Origin: Bacilli bacterium
GTDB lineage: Bacteria; Bacillota_I; Bacilli_A; RFN20; CAG-826
Assembly: GCA_024680795.1 (NCBI GenBank)
Contig: JAILBR010000043.1
Span: forward strand, 1 to 61,780
DNA length: 61,780 nt
Reading direction: 5' to 3'
Position 1 is the first letter of the stretch, and each line of letters starts with the position of its first letter. Below are positions 9,499 to 16,807 of this stretch, piece by piece. A program made the translations under genes and the position numbers. Below the pieces are notes generated by a model that ran no database searches, was not told the DNA's origin, and was given only the letters and a program-made list of their open reading frames with translations.

Positions 9499-9790
9499 TA
9501 TTATTATCTAATCTTTGTCTTTCGACAAGTTCAGCAAACTTACCATTCTTAGCGATTAAGGAATCATAAGTGCCTTCTTCGATACGTTTGCCATCAAATA
9601 AAATTTATCCTGACCATGGGGAATATAAGCCTGAGATGAGTTTAGATATTGTGGATTTGCCACTTCCAGTGCCACCGACAATTGCCACTTTTTGTCCTTG
9701 TTTAATCTTGAGGTTGAAGTTAGTGATAACTGGTTTATCTAATCTAGAATAACCAAATGTTAAATCTCTAAGGACAAGGTTACCTTTGAT
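9485..9790 (-). pseudogene. Chimeric fragment of NHLP-type bacteriocin ABC exporter genes
   Basis: [94 protein letters not shown]: Walker A region joined directly to an ABC C-terminal tail; TAA at 9605-9607; Q-loop, signature and Walker B missing. Confidence 0.7.
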
Positions 9791-9799
9791 TTTGATTTG

Positions 9800-9957
9800 T
9801 AATGTATATAAACAAATGACCAAACAAAAAACGCGATCATTGTAACAATCACAGCGCCCAAAACAATCCAAGTCACTGGGGAAGAGGATTGCAAATGTTT
9901 ATTTAAATCATCTGGATTAGTAATGCTGATGTCTTCTTTTCTAGTTGTATTTTTAAA
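9800..9957 (-). pseudogene. N-terminal fragment of NHLP-system secretion/membrane-fusion protein
   Basis: Manual translation [50 protein letters not shown] matches the SSPEQLN..L.VTSP..W..L pattern of that family. Confidence 0.55.
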
Positions 9958-10029
9958 TTGTGTTAACAGGTATAGGTAATGATGGTGCCAGTGACTCTCG
10001 CCGAGACATCATTTTTATTTTTCTATAAA

Positions 10030-10230
10030 AAATCCCCAAAGGTTTTAACGCTCATCCATTGGGGATCCGGACATGCCGTCGCATAATCCTAGTTAGAAAA
10101 TTTCACGAAAGGAGTATTATGACCAAATGCGTCTAATCTCGATTCCCACTTGCACTCATGGAAATCTTATGTGCAAACCCTCTATAGGCAACTAGAGGGG
10201 ACGTCATAGGAGGTGAGTATGACGGATTTA
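10030..10230. other. Structured intergenic element (putative cis-regulatory RNA or small RNA)
   Basis: Stems ATCCCCAA/TTGGGGAT (T-run follows on minus strand), TTGCAC/GTGCAA, CCCTCTA/TAGAGGG, GTCATA/TATGAC, plus long-range CCGTC/GACGG. Confidence 0.4.
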
Positions 10231-10301
10231 TTTTCTGAAAACATGATATATCCCCCTTATTTCCAATACAATGTACAGATTGTTCAAAAATAAATGACCC
10301 T

Positions 10302-10517
10302 CTAAATTAGAAGGCCATCGATTGAGGTGGAAAGGATTTTTGCTATCTTAATTAATTGATCATAACTAGGACATCTTTGACCACTTTGCCAGAAGTAGAC
10401 CGCTCGAGTTGAGACATCTAATTCATCAGCGAGTGATTCTTTTGTCACTTTCCTCTCTTTCATCAACTGATAGAGATTTGTACTGAATCGGTTGATGTTG
10501 TGCTTTTTCACATTCAT
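10302..10517 (-). CDS. XRE-family helix-turn-helix transcriptional regulator
   Basis: LADELDVSTRAVYFWQSGQRCPSYDQLIKIAKIL. Confidence 0.9.
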   Translation of the reverse strand: MNVKKHNINRFSTNLYQLMKERKVTKESLADELDVSTRAVYFWQSGQRCPSYDQLIKIAKILSTSIDGLLI

Positions 10518-10580
10518 CTTCTCTTTCCTCCAAATATTCGAATCCAGTACCAGATGAATGAGTGTGTTTATTTTATATAA

Positions 10581-11738
10581 CTATTTATAAATTGGAAAGT
10601 ATTTCTTGTAATATTCTTTTAAGTTTTCCTCAGTTGCATGTCTATATTGTTCTATAACTTTGAGGAACTCTTTATAACAACTATCAGCGACATCAATACC
10701 ATCGATAAGAAGTACATCGTTTGTTTCAGAAGAAGTGAATTTATATAACTCACTTATTCCGTTTGTGAGAATGACCGACAACTCTAAAAAGTTAAAAAGC
10801 GGATATTCATGTCCGAGGTTAGAACCATGAACATATCCATGGCACAATTTGTAATATCCAGTTAAATTAGAGAAATGCTGCCCAGAGCGTGAGTCTAAAT
10901 ATGTTATCAAGCCTTCAATGGAATATGGTCTTTCTTTGACGATATCATGATATCCTTCAATCGTGTCTACCCAGCCAAAGTGAAGATAATTGCTTAAGGA
11001 ACGTTCGGTTTTATTACTTCTATCTTCAAAGAATGTTCGAACGTCTTTTTTATTTTCTTGGCCCAAACTCTTTTGTAAATCTAGTTCGATACATTTTGAA
11101 AACATAGTTATAGAATTTGGATTTAGCTTTAAAACGTTAAGCTTTATCGCTGCTTCTAGCATCGCTCTTGCGTGTGGATAGGCGTTTGCGAATAAGTTAT
11201 CGCTCATGAGAGATATCGTGGTTAAAGATTCAGTGAATAAACTTAAGTATAAAGGTATGTACTTGCTTTCTTTCAATGCTGCGATATATTCACGACATTT
11301 AGAGTGAATGACCGCAAGATCGAAAAGGATTGGCATATAGATAAATCTATCGCCCAAAATTAATGGCCTTCTAATTAATAGTCCTTGCACACGATTTCTT
11401 AGTTTAATTTGATAGATGACTTTGTTTATTAAGTTCTTACGATATTCTTTATCTTCTTCTAATTTCTTTCTATCTTCATCATTTAAATACATCACGTTAG
11501 AACGATGAACGTAGACAATATGTAAACACACTTCATAAAAAGCGAAGTTATCTAAATCTAATTTAATCGCAGACTCCAACTTTCCATCTAGTGTTCGATA
11601 ATAATTATCATATTCAGGGAACAACTTAAAAATGTCATACATCATTTTAATCATAAAGTTGACATTTATCTGCCCTTTGAACACAGTTTTTAGAGCTTTG
11701 TGTCCTTGTTTTTGAAGTTGTTCAATTTCATTTTCCAT
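10581..11738 (-). CDS. DUF5677/HEPN-like protein
   Basis: C-terminal half AYPHARAMLEAAIKL...HFGW...YKLCHGYVHGS; start taken at ATG 11738 (track uses upstream TTG). Confidence 0.6.
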   Translation of the reverse strand: MENEIEQLQKQGHKALKTVFKGQINVNFMIKMMYDIFKLFPEYDNYYRTLDGKLESAIKLDLDNFAFYEVCLHIVYVHRSNVMYLNDEDRKKLEEDKEYRKNLINKVIYQIKLRNRVQGLLIRRPLILGDRFIYMPILFDLAVIHSKCREYIAALKESKYIPLYLSLFTESLTTISLMSDNLFANAYPHARAMLEAAIKLNVLKLNPNSITMFSKCIELDLQKSLGQENKKDVRTFFEDRSNKTERSLSNYLHFGWVDTIEGYHDIVKERPYSIEGLITYLDSRSGQHFSNLTGYYKLCHGYVHGSNLGHEYPLFNFLELSVILTNGISELYKFTSSETNDVLLIDGIDVADSCYKEFLKVIEQYRHATEENLKEYYKKYFPIYK

Positions 11739-11833
11739 GCTTATAGCATAGCAAAAAGATTTGCCTATAGGTATGAACAAATTGTTCGATTTTATAAGTT
11801 AGGTTTCAAAAACTCAACATAGTCCGCCTATTT

Positions 11834-11976
11834 TTATAATTTAAATGTTTCGTCGCTACAAATTATTTCTATTTTTTTATGTAATGGTCCAATGAATTCT
11901 TTATCCACAATTGATAAGAATTTTACTTTGGTGCCATTATAGGTGATGGAGGTCAATTTGCCACATAACATGAAAG
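11834..11976 (-). pseudogene. 3' end of BspA-type LRR (LRR_5) gene, separated from its 5' part by IS607
   Basis: AFMLCGKLTSITYNGTK...IICSDETFKL* is a typical terminal LRR_5 repeat and cap; joins in frame to ...PASLKKMDKW on the other side of the IS. Confidence 0.7.
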
Positions 11977-12150
11977 CCGTTATAACAAACCTATAAAAAC
12001 ATGTAAATAAATAAGAATACCTATAAACATGCTTTTTGTTGTTTTCCTTCTTCAATCTTAAACACATCAATATTCGAAGTTTTAAACTTCTTAATCAATA
12101 TATTAAAGTCCAAAGGCGTAAGTTCGGACGTAACTCGCCCTACAAGATTT
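11977..12150 (-). ncRNA. Predicted TnpB omegaRNA (reRNA) scaffold
   Basis: Region overlapping the tnpB 3' end to the right end; CATGTTT(TT)ATAGG direct repeats; position follows established TnpB biology, 5' boundary is a guess. Confidence 0.55.
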
Positions 12151-13256
12151 TTTAAATTAATCGCCGCATTAATGTCTCTATCGATAACAAGTCCACATTT
12201 AAAACACTTATAAGTTCTTGTGTTTAATTTAAGTATTTCGACTTTATTACCACAAAAAGAACAGGTTTTAGATGATGGATAATATTTATCCGCGATAATA
12301 ATTTGGCAGCCATATAATTGGCTTTTATATTCTAACTCTTTTCTAAAACGATATAAGCCAAGCTTTTGTAATCTTCTCGCAACATTCCTATCACCTTTCA
12401 TTTTTTGAATTGATAAGTCTTCAATACAAATGTAACGATAGGAATTAGTTAAGATATAGCTAACTTTATGTTCAAAATCTCTTTTGATGTTATCTAGTCT
12501 TTCCAATTGATTATCAAGTTTTCTTTTTTGTTTGAAATAATTTTTCGAAAAGATTTTAGGATCATCTTTGGTTCTCGGATGAACTTTTCTAGATAACACC
12601 TTTTGAGTTTTGATTATCTTGCTTATTTGCTTATTAATGCTTTCTGGATAATTAACGATCAATCCATTAGATAAAGCGATATTGTTCTTAATTCCTAAAT
12701 CTAAACCGATTGCATCGTAATTATCATTGTTTATACTTTTGATTGTTTCATCAACTTCGACATTGATAGAGACATAATATTTATCAAATTTTCTTGTTAT
12801 TCTACAGCCAGTGATATGACCGGCAAACCTTATATGTTCATTGAGTTTAATAGGAAGCATTTTTGGAAGTTTAATATAATCTTTATCAACGCCTTCTTTT
12901 TTAATCATTTTCATTTGATCTCCACCAATATAGAAGGATTGAAAGGTATCTTTCTTGCTTTTGAAATGAAGCATATTCCCATTCATTTTAAAGGATTTAA
13001 TACTTCTTAATGAATCCTTAAAATCCATAAAAGGTTCTTGAGAAACATATTTACTCATTTCATAAACAAATGGGAACTCAACTTTCTTTAAAGCATTGAA
13101 TTTCTTTTTTAATTTATAAATATCAAAATCAATAGAATTCTTGTTATATTGTTCTAATATCCAGTTATAAGTAAATCTTGCCACCCCAAAAGACTTTTCA
13201 ATAAATGTTCTTTGTTTATTATTTGGATATATCCTGATCTTCTGAGAGAGTATCAT
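12021..13256 (-). CDS. tnpB: RNA-guided endonuclease TnpB
   Basis: HTH_OrfB N-terminus (KIRIYPN...SFGVARFTYNW), RuvC-I GLDLG, RuvC-II IEDL, zinc finger PSSKTCSFCG...CFKCG, RuvC-III DRDINAAINL. Confidence 0.95.
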   Translation of the reverse strand: MILSQKIRIYPNNKQRTFIEKSFGVARFTYNWILEQYNKNSIDFDIYKLKKKFNALKKVEFPFVYEMSKYVSQEPFMDFKDSLRSIKSFKMNGNMLHFKSKKDTFQSFYIGGDQMKMIKKEGVDKDYIKLPKMLPIKLNEHIRFAGHITGCRITRKFDKYYVSINVEVDETIKSINNDNYDAIGLDLGIKNNIALSNGLIVNYPESINKQISKIIKTQKVLSRKVHPRTKDDPKIFSKNYFKQKRKLDNQLERLDNIKRDFEHKVSYILTNSYRYICIEDLSIQKMKGDRNVARRLQKLGLYRFRKELEYKSQLYGCQIIIADKYYPSSKTCSFCGNKVEILKLNTRTYKCFKCGLVIDRDINAAINLKNLVGRVTSELTPLDFNILIKKFKTSNIDVFKIEEGKQQKACL

Positions 13257-13875
13257 TTACTACTTTATTCATCCCTTCTATTAGTTTTTTATTCTTTTTA
13301 CTTCTAGAGCCATATAATCTAGCAGATAGCACTGTTATTATTTCTAAAACATCTTTTGCAAGCTCTTCTTCAAATGATGGGTTTTCTTCCCCTTTGTTAA
13401 TGATAATAACTTCTACTTCTTTAGCTTCGCATATAGAGAATATTAGTTCAGCACCGAAACGAAGAAGTCTATCTTTATGAGTGATAACTAGCCTTTTGAC
13501 CTGACCATCTAAAATAAGATTTATGAGATTAGTAAGACCTTTTTTATAGTAATTCATCCCCGAACCTAAATCGGATATAATTTCATATTTATATCCTTTT
13601 TGGGCACAGTATAATTCTAGAACTTGAATCTGTCTTTCTAGGTCTTTCTTTTGGTCGTTAGAACTAACTCTAGCATAGGCGATAGTTTTCAAATCATCTT
13701 GATTGGTTATTATTCTTCTATCAATCTTTTTTAAAGAATCAATATTATATCTTCTCGCCCCGCCAGGAGTAATTTCATCTGGCTTTAATTTGCCATCTTT
13801 ATCCCAGTTTCTTAATGTTTGAATGGTTACTCCAAGCATTTTAGAAGCTTTACCTATAGACACTAGTTTACTCAT
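13219..13875 (-). CDS. tnpA: IS607 TnpA serine recombinase
   Basis: MerR-like HTH (SIGKASKMLGVTIQTLRNWD), YARVSS catalytic Ser, DRLLRFG. Confidence 0.95.
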   Translation of the reverse strand: MSKLVSIGKASKMLGVTIQTLRNWDKDGKLKPDEITPGGARRYNIDSLKKIDRRIITNQDDLKTIAYARVSSNDQKKDLERQIQVLELYCAQKGYKYEIISDLGSGMNYYKKGLTNLINLILDGQVKRLVITHKDRLLRFGAELIFSICEAKEVEVIIINKGEENPSFEEELAKDVLEIITVLSARLYGSRSKKNKKLIEGMNKVVNDTLSEDQDISK

Positions 13876-13967
13876 GACTTTATGGTACCATATTCAAAAG
13901 ATAATTTCTATATTTTCTTTACACTTTTTTATTGAATTTTATAGATATTTTGTTGCAGTTAGTAGCC

Positions 13968-14583
13968 CATTTATCCATTTTCTTTAATGAGGCTGGTCTG
14001 GTAAAGAATTTTTAATCTTTTCCACTTTAGTGGATGTAGGTGTTCCAATATCTAAATAAATGATTTCGTCTTTGAAGATATTTAAAAGGAACTTATATTT
14101 CTTTTCACTAATTTTATTTTCTTTATAGATTCTTTCGATTAGTTCTCTTAATGATTCTTTTTCTTTAGAAATTAAGATAGCCATGAATGGTTTATTGTAT
14201 CCTTTAACTGATTTAATTTCTTCCATCACTGCGTCACTAGTCAATGAATTTTCACTGACATAAAATAATGTGCCCTTACATGCATATGGAGCGATAAATC
14301 TTGTTGCTACTTCTTTCCAATTTTTTCCTACAGGTATTCCACGATCATACCAAATAGGTAGTCCCTCCATTTGTAAATCAAAAATATCGCAGTACACATC
14401 TACATAATCTTTATGTGAATAGGAAACGAAATAATACTCGTTGGTGATAATATCAGGAAGATATATTGTTGGTATTGAATATAAGTCGTTTGACCTAATA
14501 ATATTCTTCTTGATTTGAACCTGTTCTTTAGGGGAACGCGTTTCTAATTCTTTGATCTCAATAAAGGTTGCTTTTTCCATCAT
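13968..14583 (-). pseudogene. TIR-domain protein, 5' part of a disrupted TIR-LRR gene
   Basis: TIR motifs FVSYSHKD, IWYDRGIPVGKNW, SLTSDAVMEEI; ORF 13984-14583 ends at a frame jump, and the alternative frame reads PASLKKMDKW up to the IS left end. Confidence 0.75.
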
Positions 14584-14671
14584 GAAAATATTATATGTCT
14601 ATATAAATATAATTGTCATTTATAGTTGGAAAGAAGTATTATATTTTTTGAGCGAAAAGGAAGATAAAAAT

Positions 14672-15196
14672 ATGTTTGGAAAAGAATTAGCCCATGATGA
14701 AACTTACTATAAGGAATATGGTGAATATAAAATCACAAATTCTTATACCGTATATGAAGCATATATCGAAGAGATGCACGATAAAGAAGGCAAATTAGTC
14801 ACTAATAAAGATGGTTCTCCACGTTATCGTTATATCGATGATAGAGATATTTCTACAGTAAACGAAGATAAACTCGTTAAAGAAATTAGACCAGGCTTAT
14901 ATAAAGATGTTTATCAAGTCAATGGTGACTATGTTGAAAAAGTTGAAAAAGAAGGTAAAAGAATTTACTTTGTTGTCGAACAAGCAAGAGTTAAAACTTT
15001 AGCGAAAGATAGCAAAGTCGTTGCTAGAAATGGCACATATCGCTTATTAAGTGAAGTTGGCTATGTCCTTGTTGATGATTATGAAATCGAAAATCCAAAA
15101 GTGATTGCGGTTCGTAAATTCAAAACCGAAGATCACGAGCAAGAAGCCAAAGATATCATCAAAAATAAAATTAGAAGATTCTCTGGAGAAGAATAG
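14672..15196 (+). CDS. Hypothetical acidic/basic soluble protein
   Basis: AAGGAAG RBS-like sequence before ATG 14672; 174 aa; followed by its own terminator. Confidence 0.7.
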   Translation: MFGKELAHDETYYKEYGEYKITNSYTVYEAYIEEMHDKEGKLVTNKDGSPRYRYIDDRDISTVNEDKLVKEIRPGLYKDVYQVNGDYVEKVEKEGKRIYFVVEQARVKTLAKDSKVVARNGTYRLLSEVGYVLVDDYEIENPKVIAVRKFKTEDHEQEAKDIIKNKIRRFSGEE

Positions 15197-15218
15197 ACCG
15201 CAAGGTCTTTTTCTTTTT
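15195..15218 (+). terminator. Intrinsic terminator
   Basis: AGACC-GCAA-GGTCT followed by T-run. Confidence 0.75.
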
Positions 15219-15226
15219 ATATAAAT

Positions 15227-15245
15227 AAAAAGGTCATTTCTGACC
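15227..15245 (-). terminator. Intrinsic terminator of ZIP gene remnant/lipase
   Basis: Minus strand GGTCA-GAAA-TGACC-TTTTT. Confidence 0.6.
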
Positions 15246-15249
15246 CACG

Positions 15250-15462
15250 TTATCCTAAAGCGATATCAAGTATCATCATGACCACAAATCCGACCGCTAA
15301 ACCGATGGTAGCGAGGTTTGAGTGTGGTCCTTCATTGGCTTCTGGAATCAATTCTTCAACAACGACATAAATCATGACGCCTGCCGCAAAGGCAAGGGTA
15401 TATGGAAGGATTGTGGTTACTGCCGAAGTTAATAAAATGGCGAGTAACCCAGCGATAGCCTC
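15250..15462 (-). pseudogene. C-terminal fragment of ZIP/ZupT family metal transporter
   Basis: [69 protein letters not shown]; no start; begins directly after the lipase stop. Confidence 0.85.
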
Positions 15463-15463
15463 T

Positions 15464-16807
15464 TTATTTGAAAATTATGTTATCGTGTGTTTCGTGATAT
15501 TTCTTTAATAGCAAATACGTGGTCTTAGCTTCATGGAATATTGGTAATCTAGTAAAGTTATCTGCATATGGAACAACAACTTCTAAGACAAGTGACAAAT
15601 ATGCAGTTGCAAATTTTTCTACGGAATCACAAGACGCTCTTAATTTTGTTTCATCATAATTTACATGGTTTTCGTTTAGATAAGGAGTAATAAAGTTATA
15701 TAACTTATTGCTCTTAAATAATGCTATTTTTTGGAATAACGAATATGAATTAATGGTTTCTATCATTTCTTCAACTGCATCTGGATGATAAGTATATAGA
15801 GTCCCCATAATACCAGCTATATAGCCAAGTCCGTCTTGATAATTATTGGCGAAGGCCGCTCTAGAGTTCATCAATTCATCTTCTTTTTCGCTTGTGTATG
15901 TAGTTAATCTAGAAATCAAATACGCAACATACTCGGCTTCGTTTTGGAAGTTATCGCTTGAAATAAATGGTTTAAAATCGCCCTCTTCGATTATCTTGTC
16001 AGTTACTTCTTTATCGAAAATATCTAAGAATACACCGTCTTGGCTCATGCCATATGACGATGGATAAAATTTAGAAATGAAGTCATTGCTATTAGCGTGG
16101 TTAAAAACATTTTTATATTGTTTTACGTTTTGAGTCTCAATTGTAGAAGGAGCTTCAAAATTATAGACATATAAATCTTTCATATCGGTCTTCATGCTTT
16201 TATCTTCCATGACTTTACCAGCAAGGTTTTGCATAAGGGCCGCCGAACGTGAATATCCCGATAACCAGATTTTGACTTTCTTTTGTTGGGTAGACACTAC
16301 ACTCTTTAATTCTTCGTACATCTTTTCAGCACTATTTTCAAACCCGATTGCGTTACCTTCCAAACCGATATGGAAGTTTGCAGACCACTGCATACAGTAA
16401 TAGTAACTTCTTGCGGATAAGGACAAAATGACAAAATCGTTATATTCTTTCTTCCCAATTACAAATGAATCATATTGTTCACTTTCATTAGAATCATAGT
16501 TATCACTTTTATACACAGTAGTATATTCTAGATCTCTATAAAATTTATCGATTGTGGCGTTTTGTGAAGCAGCAAGAGAGAAACCAAGAGATAAAAGCGC
16601 TAAGTCCTTACTATAAGTTGTTGAGTCGTTATAAAAGGGATCTAGTCTATAATTGCATATGAAATGTTCATCTTGTGTATTTGGAATATATACTTCAAGT
16701 TGTCTATTATCAGTTTCTTTTGGTTTAGGTTCAGTAGAAGAGTTATTACAACTGCAAAAAACGAATAATAACGGGAAAATTAATAGGGATTTGCTGAATA
16801 TTTTCAT
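15464..16807 (-). CDS. Lipoprotein, lipase class 3-like alpha/beta hydrolase
   Basis: Signal peptide with lipobox (FCSC); [11 protein letters not shown] nucleophile elbow; YNFEAP; NSNDFI. Confidence 0.75.

Follow-up and report, generated by a model that had tools for sequence, protein, structure and literature searches.

What interrupts the TIR+LRR_5 gene on contig JAILBR010000043.1 of a Bacilli bacterium, an uncultured inhabitant of the rumen (assembly GCA_024680795.1), and does the intruder have what it would need to move and to cut DNA? The stretch that we analyzed, 61,780 nucleotides (nt) long and referred to here as the window, harbors at this site a minus-strand element of 1,989 bp plus one GG core, in which a 90-nt left end is followed by the gene tnpA, by tnpB, which overlaps it, and by a right end (Table 1). 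We consider it very probable that this stretch is a complete, recently mobile insertion sequence (IS) of the IS607 family with a TnpB/omegaRNA module, its mechanism being deduced by homology.

Boundaries, empty alleles and sister copies

The junctions were compared with the traits of IS607 elements, which lack target-site duplications and long terminal inverted repeats, have a GG core and excise without a scar. On the minus strand, the left junction reads AAATG, GG (13967-13966) and CTACTAAC, with the T of TGGG at 13969, while the right junction reads TTATAAC, GG (11978-11977) and CTTTCATG. Reading 11960-13990 on this strand, the flank ...AAAGAAAATGGATAAATG is followed by GG and the left end CTACTAACTGCAAC..., and the right side of the element reads ...TTTTATAGGTTTGTTATAAC, GG and then the flank CTTTCATGTTATGTGGC.... 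A GG core is found at both junctions, a single GG in the empty allele, and inverted matches are weak and subterminal only; the one candidate for terminal inverted repeats, a 19-nt pair (11993-12011 with 13914-13932, 84%), was set aside as plausibly a product of chance in AT-rich DNA. Deletion of 11977-13967 with one GG kept yields ...AAAATGGATAAATGGGCTTTCATGTTATGTGGC..., the excision by which a preliminary description of this DNA had fixed the boundaries, and the donor joint expected after excision by TnpA would read ...AAATGGGCTTTC.... Sister copies, contigs that skip the element and a natural empty site all agree with these limits to the letter.

The empty site was seen in two kinds of material. 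In a comparison of Logan contigs from four public runs over 9500-16500, the occupied allele is spanned at both of its junctions by contigs of runs X1 and X4 (one study); in X5 (goat gut) and X7 (gut), from two other studies, one contig each joins 11974 to 13964 and thereby skips exactly 1,989 nt, with 4 letters (GGCT) that fit either side, as predicted by a crossover at GG. The second source is L031, a 5,650-nt contig reached through the 517-residue member of the 90%-identity cluster of the neighboring TIR protein. Here the uninterrupted site reads ...GATAAATGGGCTTTCATGTTATGTGGCAAATTG..., that is, ...AAATGGG directly followed by CTTTCATGTTATGTGG, and the reading frame runs across it as ...SLKKIDKWAFMLCGKLTSITYNGT... 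within a protein of 517 residues (Pfam TIR_2 and LRR_5, the latter at E 1.4e-30). The site is therefore occupied in some strains and empty in others whose flanks are ~98% identical.

A protein search with TnpB returned relatives that are 98, 82, 74 and 73% identical, and their contigs were compared with the window. DNA copies of 99% identity were found in L016, L017 and L018, in other gene contexts and other metagenomes, with BLAST homology extending from the G before the left GG (GGG) to the right CGG and no further; the element ends are identical between the window and these copies, and 20 substitutions in 1,991 nt separate the window from L016. In the more distant copies (79-83%) and relatives (53-59%), the last letters are always ...GTTTRTYRTAACGG, beyond which the DNA is unrelated; counting that of the window, ten distinct right flanks are all preceded by ...TTATAACGG or a near variant, and a 373-nt contig of run X5 shows a match that begins at 11977 and then different DNA. 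The preliminary description had named a search for other copies and empty alleles as a check on its reading; both have now been found, the 99% copies having the same ends as the window. Near-identical copies in at least three contexts, together with the occupied/empty polymorphism, point to recent movement of the element, transposition itself being read from these sequence comparisons.

Other searches for copies yielded several observations of their own. A TnpB-based search for related loci in genome contigs gave none that could be confirmed. An exact search of the genome contigs with the right-end pattern gave four matches, three of which are contig ends of one metagenome-assembled genome (MAG) that carry only the last ~54 nt and thus provide right flanks and no left ends. 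These contigs, labeled 'Actinobacillus sp. MAG017' (L032:1-54, L033:1-54, L035:5464-5518), start or finish with the ~54-nt right end, each with a different flank, so that a multi-copy relative apparently broke the assembly; the taxon label is odd for such AT-rich DNA. L016:4281-7236 and L017:4281-5059, from different samples, have in common the left flank and the 99% copy and then run into unrelated right flanks (YunG/TetR/DegV and an ABC-transporter ATPase, respectively), reflecting either two copies in a chimeric assembly or an IS-associated rearrangement. In an 83%-identical copy (L019:1-234, L020:1-132), the left end is missing and high-GC DNA adjoins the tnpA start, with a 78-nt inverted left-end fragment at the start of L019; either the contig is chimeric or the element is truncated.

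Table 1. Coordinates of the element, its parts and the interrupted host gene in the window.
Feature	Positions	Strand	Basis
Whole IS607-family element, both GG cores included	11977..13967	minus	Homology limits of sister copies, empty-site contigs, L031
Left end, 90 nt, from GG core to tnpA ATG	13876..13965	minus	Sequence; identical in L016-L018
TGGG at the left end, putative target-adjacent motif and TnpA target; the left GG core is formed by its final two G (13967-13966)	13966..13969	minus	Sequence
tnpA, 218 residues, MerR-type helix-turn-helix (HTH) followed by serine-recombinase catalytic domain	13219..13875	minus	Pfam, NCBIfam, PDB
tnpB, 411 residues, overlapping tnpA by 38 nt	12021..13256	minus	Pfam, NCBIfam, ISDra2 alignment
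Predicted omegaRNA scaffold, 170 nt, ending ...UAUAACGG	11977..12146	minus	RNAalifold consensus, covariation, minimum free energy
Flanking 16 nt CTTTCATGTTATGTGG, predicted guide and target in the empty allele	11961..11976	minus	Sequence; L031
5' part of host gene, TIR-only open reading frame of 199 residues	13984..14583	minus	Pfam TIR_2; comparison with P0123 on L031
3' remnant of host TIR+LRR_5 gene, downstream of the insertion	11834..11976	minus	98% identical to L031 1639-3610

The recombinase and the putative nuclease

Assignment to the IS607 family, as well as the claim of an intact tnpA, had been part of the preliminary description, and both are borne out. The tnpA reading frame is full length, with Pfam MerR (residues 6-43) and Resolvase (65-197) domains, and its product scores 218.8 bits against the NCBIfam equivalog NF033518 (IS607 family transposase), for which the cut-off is 110. 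TnpA also matches the catalytic domains of IS607-type TnpA proteins in the PDB (6DGC, 3LHK and 6DGB, E 1e-17 to 3e-30), the best being the ISC1926 TnpA structure 6DGC (E 3e-30), with which the YARVSS motif is aligned; S71 in this motif is presumably the catalytic serine. With respect to the left end, which had been put at ~90 nt with no room for an IStron intron, the length is 90 nt, and a scan of 11500-14500 on both strands with 4,227 Rfam families found no family at E<=1, including no group I intron, RAGATH-18 or catalogued omegaRNA; given the short left end and the absence of an Rfam match, the element does not qualify as an IStron with a group I intron.

The 411-residue TnpB contains HTH_OrfB_IS605 (PF12323), OrfB_IS605 (PF01385) and Cas12f1-like_TNB (PF07282), all above the Pfam gathering scores, and exceeds the cut-off of NCBIfam NF040570 (TnpB subfamily) with 212.9 bits vs. 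100; it falls below the narrower 'exception' models (IS607_TnpB, 148.7 vs. 350; IS200_TnpB, 248 vs. 425). Its structural relatives in the PDB are 8BF8 and 8IAZ. All three acidic residues of the RuvC site are present, as had been claimed: D186, E279 and D361 align to D191, E278 and D361 of ISDra2 TnpB (8BF8/8EXA), in which D191A and E278A are inactive (Karvelis et al., PMC8612924). This triad and the zinc-finger cysteines (C332, C335, C351 and C354, in a CxxC...CxxC arrangement) are invariant in 12 relatives, down to an H. pylori IS607-type TnpB at 41% identity. With both genes at full length and the catalytic residues in place, we infer that TnpB is probably active as an RNA-guided nuclease.

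Some of our results weigh against an element that is still at work in this genome. Neither a DNA search nor the omegaRNA covariance model revealed a second copy in the window's own genome (a MAG that is 74% complete), and a search of 60 related genomes for copies or empty sites gave chance-level short matches only; with a single copy in the MAG and none in 60 relatives, there is no within-genome evidence of transposition. In the promoter scan, promoter-like sites were no commoner than in shuffles. Between the tnpB genes of the window and the 99% copy there are 7 non-synonymous and 5 synonymous differences, a ratio that is compatible with function and does not indicate strong purifying selection. 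The lone terminator-like site on the minus strand (12129-12108) was discarded, as it lies inside the predicted scaffold and says nothing on transcription. Many natural TnpBs are weakly active. One could thus speculate that the copy is intact in sequence and functionally dead or dormant here, i.e. a stranded single copy with TnpB and omegaRNA unexpressed or inactive, for which the single copy, the want of a convincing promoter and the 7 amino-acid differences from the sister TnpB would all speak. We deem such dormancy unlikely, in view of: 1) both reading frames at full length with all catalytic residues; 2) ends identical to those of the sister copies; 3) near-identical copies in at least three contexts and a site polymorphic among ~98%-identical strains, which suggest recent movement.

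Predicted scaffold, guide and target motif

With 43 nt of room between the stop codon of tnpB and the right-end GG, an omegaRNA scaffold must overlap coding sequence. The predicted scaffold (12146-11977) takes in the 126 nt at the 3' end of tnpB, counting the stop codon, together with a 44-nt right end, its final letters being ACGG. Eight non-redundant relatives were aligned over their last 240 nt and subsequently over their last 170 nt, and RNAalifold gave a consensus of 43 pairs; the covariance model R1 built on it recovers all relatives, at E 1e-20 to 1e-40, and matches one site only in the window's genome. In the alignment fitted to this model, a procedure that favors structure, 93% of the cells were paired vs. 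38-51% when the 3' partners were slid by 1-3 columns, and changes on both sides occurred in 18 pairs vs. 1-8 in the slid controls, with 0 of 500 shuffles reaching the observed values. A raw count based on MAFFT yielded 14 compensatory pairs, in the same direction as the slid controls. The window scaffold on its own has a minimum free energy of -40.5 kcal/mol (z = -3.64, for a single sequence), and the two substitutions relative to L016 that fall on paired scaffold positions both change G-U to A-U. These data suggest that the conserved, covarying right-end structure is the omegaRNA scaffold, its ends being predicted.

It might be argued that the right-end structure represents a TnpA-binding DNA end combined with codon-level conservation of the TnpB C-terminus rather than a guide scaffold, seeing that coding sequence, with the stop codon counted in, makes up 126 of the 170 nt and that the final ~40 nt must double as a recombination site, with 60 bp of right end needed for excision of the Clostridium botulinum element. 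However, compensatory double changes in 18 of 43 pairs and a pairing that collapses with a one-column slide are not predicted by constraint on a protein or a DNA site. In addition, the block of ~20 nt at the 5' side (12143-12124) is identical at every position, synonymous ones included, in genes whose TnpB proteins share no more than 53-59% identity, and indels in the alignment are confined to one hairpin loop. We therefore regard this explanation as very improbable. As to a guide taken from the flank, which the preliminary description had proposed, the match is circumstantial: behind its TGGG, the empty allele L031 agrees with the predicted guide CTTTCATGTTATGTGG at 16 of 16 positions, the guide length being adopted by analogy with ISDra2 (PMC8612924).

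The target-adjacent motif (TAM) of the nuclease had been stated as TGGG. This tetranucleotide does adjoin the left end of the window copy, but a strict T cannot be sustained for the sites of the clade: among seven insertion sites, TGGG was found at 4 (the window, L021, L022 and L024) and AGGG at 3, namely that of L016-L018, where the element 99% identical to ours sits behind GAAGGG, that of L027, and that of the syntenic solo copies L025/L029. L019/L020 and L023, with left ends missing or replaced, were left out of this tally. Thus GGG as a flank motif is secure, and WGGG seems to describe the clade's sites better than strict TGGG. With a 99%-identical copy behind AGGG and a tally of 4:3, integration does not depend on the T, and TnpB may not need it either.

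Equating TGGG with the nuclease TAM is reasonable but unproven, a transfer from the flanks and from a distant homologue; this, too, counts against the reading in its strict form. In the IS607 IStron of C. botulinum, TnpA strictly needs GG only and prefers TGGG, and a TAM library for CboTnpB gave the consensus TGGG (bioRxiv 10.1101/2023.11.20.567912). Other IS607 TnpBs, on the opposing side, have AGGAG or GAGGG as TAM (PMC11061315). There is accordingly a real possibility, although we would not put it first, that the element and its mechanism are as described and the TAM is WGGG, NGGG or a longer or different motif. The AGGG sites and the divergent TAMs of other IS607 TnpBs fit with this, as does the requirement for GG alone in C. 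botulinum integration. On the other hand, the CboTnpB library consensus and the T at 4 of 7 sites, ours included, favor TGGG, and the integration preference may differ from the nuclease TAM, in which case the insertions behind AGGG might be ones that TnpB is unable to defend.

Working model, related systems and the host locus

For the element as a complete IS607 with a TnpB/omegaRNA module, we postulate the following sequence of events. TnpA would excise the element as a double-stranded circle, and re-integration would occur by crossover at GG within (T/A)GGG, leaving no scar. The tnpB mRNA's 3' end together with the right end (12146-11977) would fold into the ~170-nt scaffold bound by TnpB, and transcription into the flank would supply a guide of ~16 nt, CUUUCAUGUUAUGUGG. 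The TnpB-omegaRNA complex would recognize the emptied site, i.e. TGGG plus the guide sequence, and cut it via RuvC D186/E279/D361, whereupon repair from a sister copy would restore the element. It is on the strength of homology to characterized IS607/TnpB systems that we propose transcription and processing of the RNA, the length of the guide, the exact TAM and the activity of the nuclease.

Among those systems, the CboIStron of C. botulinum (TnpA_S, CboTnpB and omegaRNA; bioRxiv 10.1101/2023.11.20.567912) resembles our element in having a serine-recombinase TnpA followed by TnpB and, by its published description, a GG core at both junctions, TGGG 5' of the left end and a scarless empty site; in both, the scaffold ends in (U/A)CGG before the flank guide, with UCGG in C. 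botulinum and ACGG here. The CboIStron differs in carrying a group I intron, of which the window element has none, and AGGG sites occur in the clade of the window element. The prototype, H. pylori IS607, has the same gene order and belongs to the same family, its TnpB (cluster P0017) being a full-length homologue at 40-41% identity; at ~40% identity it stands apart from the rumen/gut metagenome clade of the window element, whose members are 53-99% identical. TnpB of the ISFba1 type (PDB 8IAZ; PMC11061315), an IS607-associated RNA-guided nuclease, is homologous over the full length (E 1.5e-36), but it is guided by a RAGATH-18-derived reRNA that contains the RAGATH-18 motif and has no overlap with the coding sequence, and it uses AGGAG or GAGGG as TAM, in contrast to the predicted scaffold overlapping the tnpB 3' end, the lack of RAGATH-18 in Rfam and the WGGG flank motif of the window element. 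ISDra2 TnpB (IS200/IS605; 8EXA/8BF8; PMC8612924) and ours have a common domain architecture, with the same RuvC triad (D-E-D) and a zinc finger, and, by prediction for ours, an omegaRNA that derives from the 3' part of tnpB plus the right end and carries a flank guide of ~16 nt. ISDra2 differs by its Y1 (HUH) transposase, movement as single-stranded DNA and a TTGAT TAM, compared with the serine recombinase and GG core here.

Within the rumen/gut clade, TnpB relatives that are 53-56% identical and have no tnpA were found in L025:1140-2780, L026, L029:1-1560 and L028:1215-2760. The solo tnpB of L025 and L029 directly follows two tRNA genes and is itself followed by a DHODB_Fe-S_bind gene; L025 has, in addition, Ppx-GppA upstream. 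A 2Fe-2S_thioredx ... tnpB context is common to L028 and the P0012 locus. Directly behind the ...AATAACGG end, L025 and L029 have DNA similar to a T-arm fragment of a tRNA (GGTCGTGTGTTCGAATC and GATCGCTGGTTCGAATC), and the RuvC triad and zinc-finger cysteines of the solo TnpBs are intact. These genes could be stranded or could be domesticated TnpBs with a fixed guide, and solo copies at a syntenic locus with a T-arm-like flank would fit the domesticated, fixed-guide form rather than a selfish one. One may go further and speculate that the clade represents an uncharacterized omegaRNA/TnpB type, with a compact, coding-overlapping scaffold of ~170 nt, a relaxed WGGG TAM and copies without tnpA that several species retain at a single syntenic site beside tRNA genes (L025, L029, L028 and the P0012 locus), a notion to which we attach little likelihood.

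As for the host gene, the ~98%-identical goat-gut strain of L031 encodes at 230-1783 an intact, BspA-type TIR_2+LRR_5 protein of 517 residues (P0123), whereas in the window strain the gene is broken twice, by the IS and by a 793-nt deletion in the LRR region (junction 13991-13997), which shifts the frame and leaves the TIR-only frame of 199 residues. The 3' remnant continues from 13968-13997 across the IS and encodes the C-terminus ...AFMLCGKLTSITYNGTK...SDETFKL. Hence the seamless LRR_5 repeat that the preliminary description had obtained by excision is correct as to the restored frame, which matches L031, but it belongs to a 3' remnant next to a 793-nt deletion and not to an intact gene. A contig of run X7 has a different deletion in the same gene, where 22 nt matching L031 1586-1607 stand in place of 13998-14102, and in several strains decay of the gene seems to be under way independently. 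Beyond the right flank, window positions 10302-11780 encode a DUF5677 protein of 399 residues and an HTH protein of 71 residues, with the same neighbors in the L031 strain; together with the TIR+LRR gene, they may constitute a small, variable, defense-like island.

The type of system, its mechanism and the TGGG motif have already been published, so that the value of this locus lies in the completeness of its documented natural history and not in a new kind of biology. It provides a clean natural example of IS607/TnpB logic, with the occupied allele, the scarless empty allele, the sister copies and a covarying scaffold all found in public data. The 411-residue TnpB with its predicted 170-nt scaffold and short G-rich putative TAM is a candidate compact editor for tests at the bench, and the mixture of TGGG and AGGG sites offers a small test of the coupling between the target of the transposase and the TAM of the nuclease.

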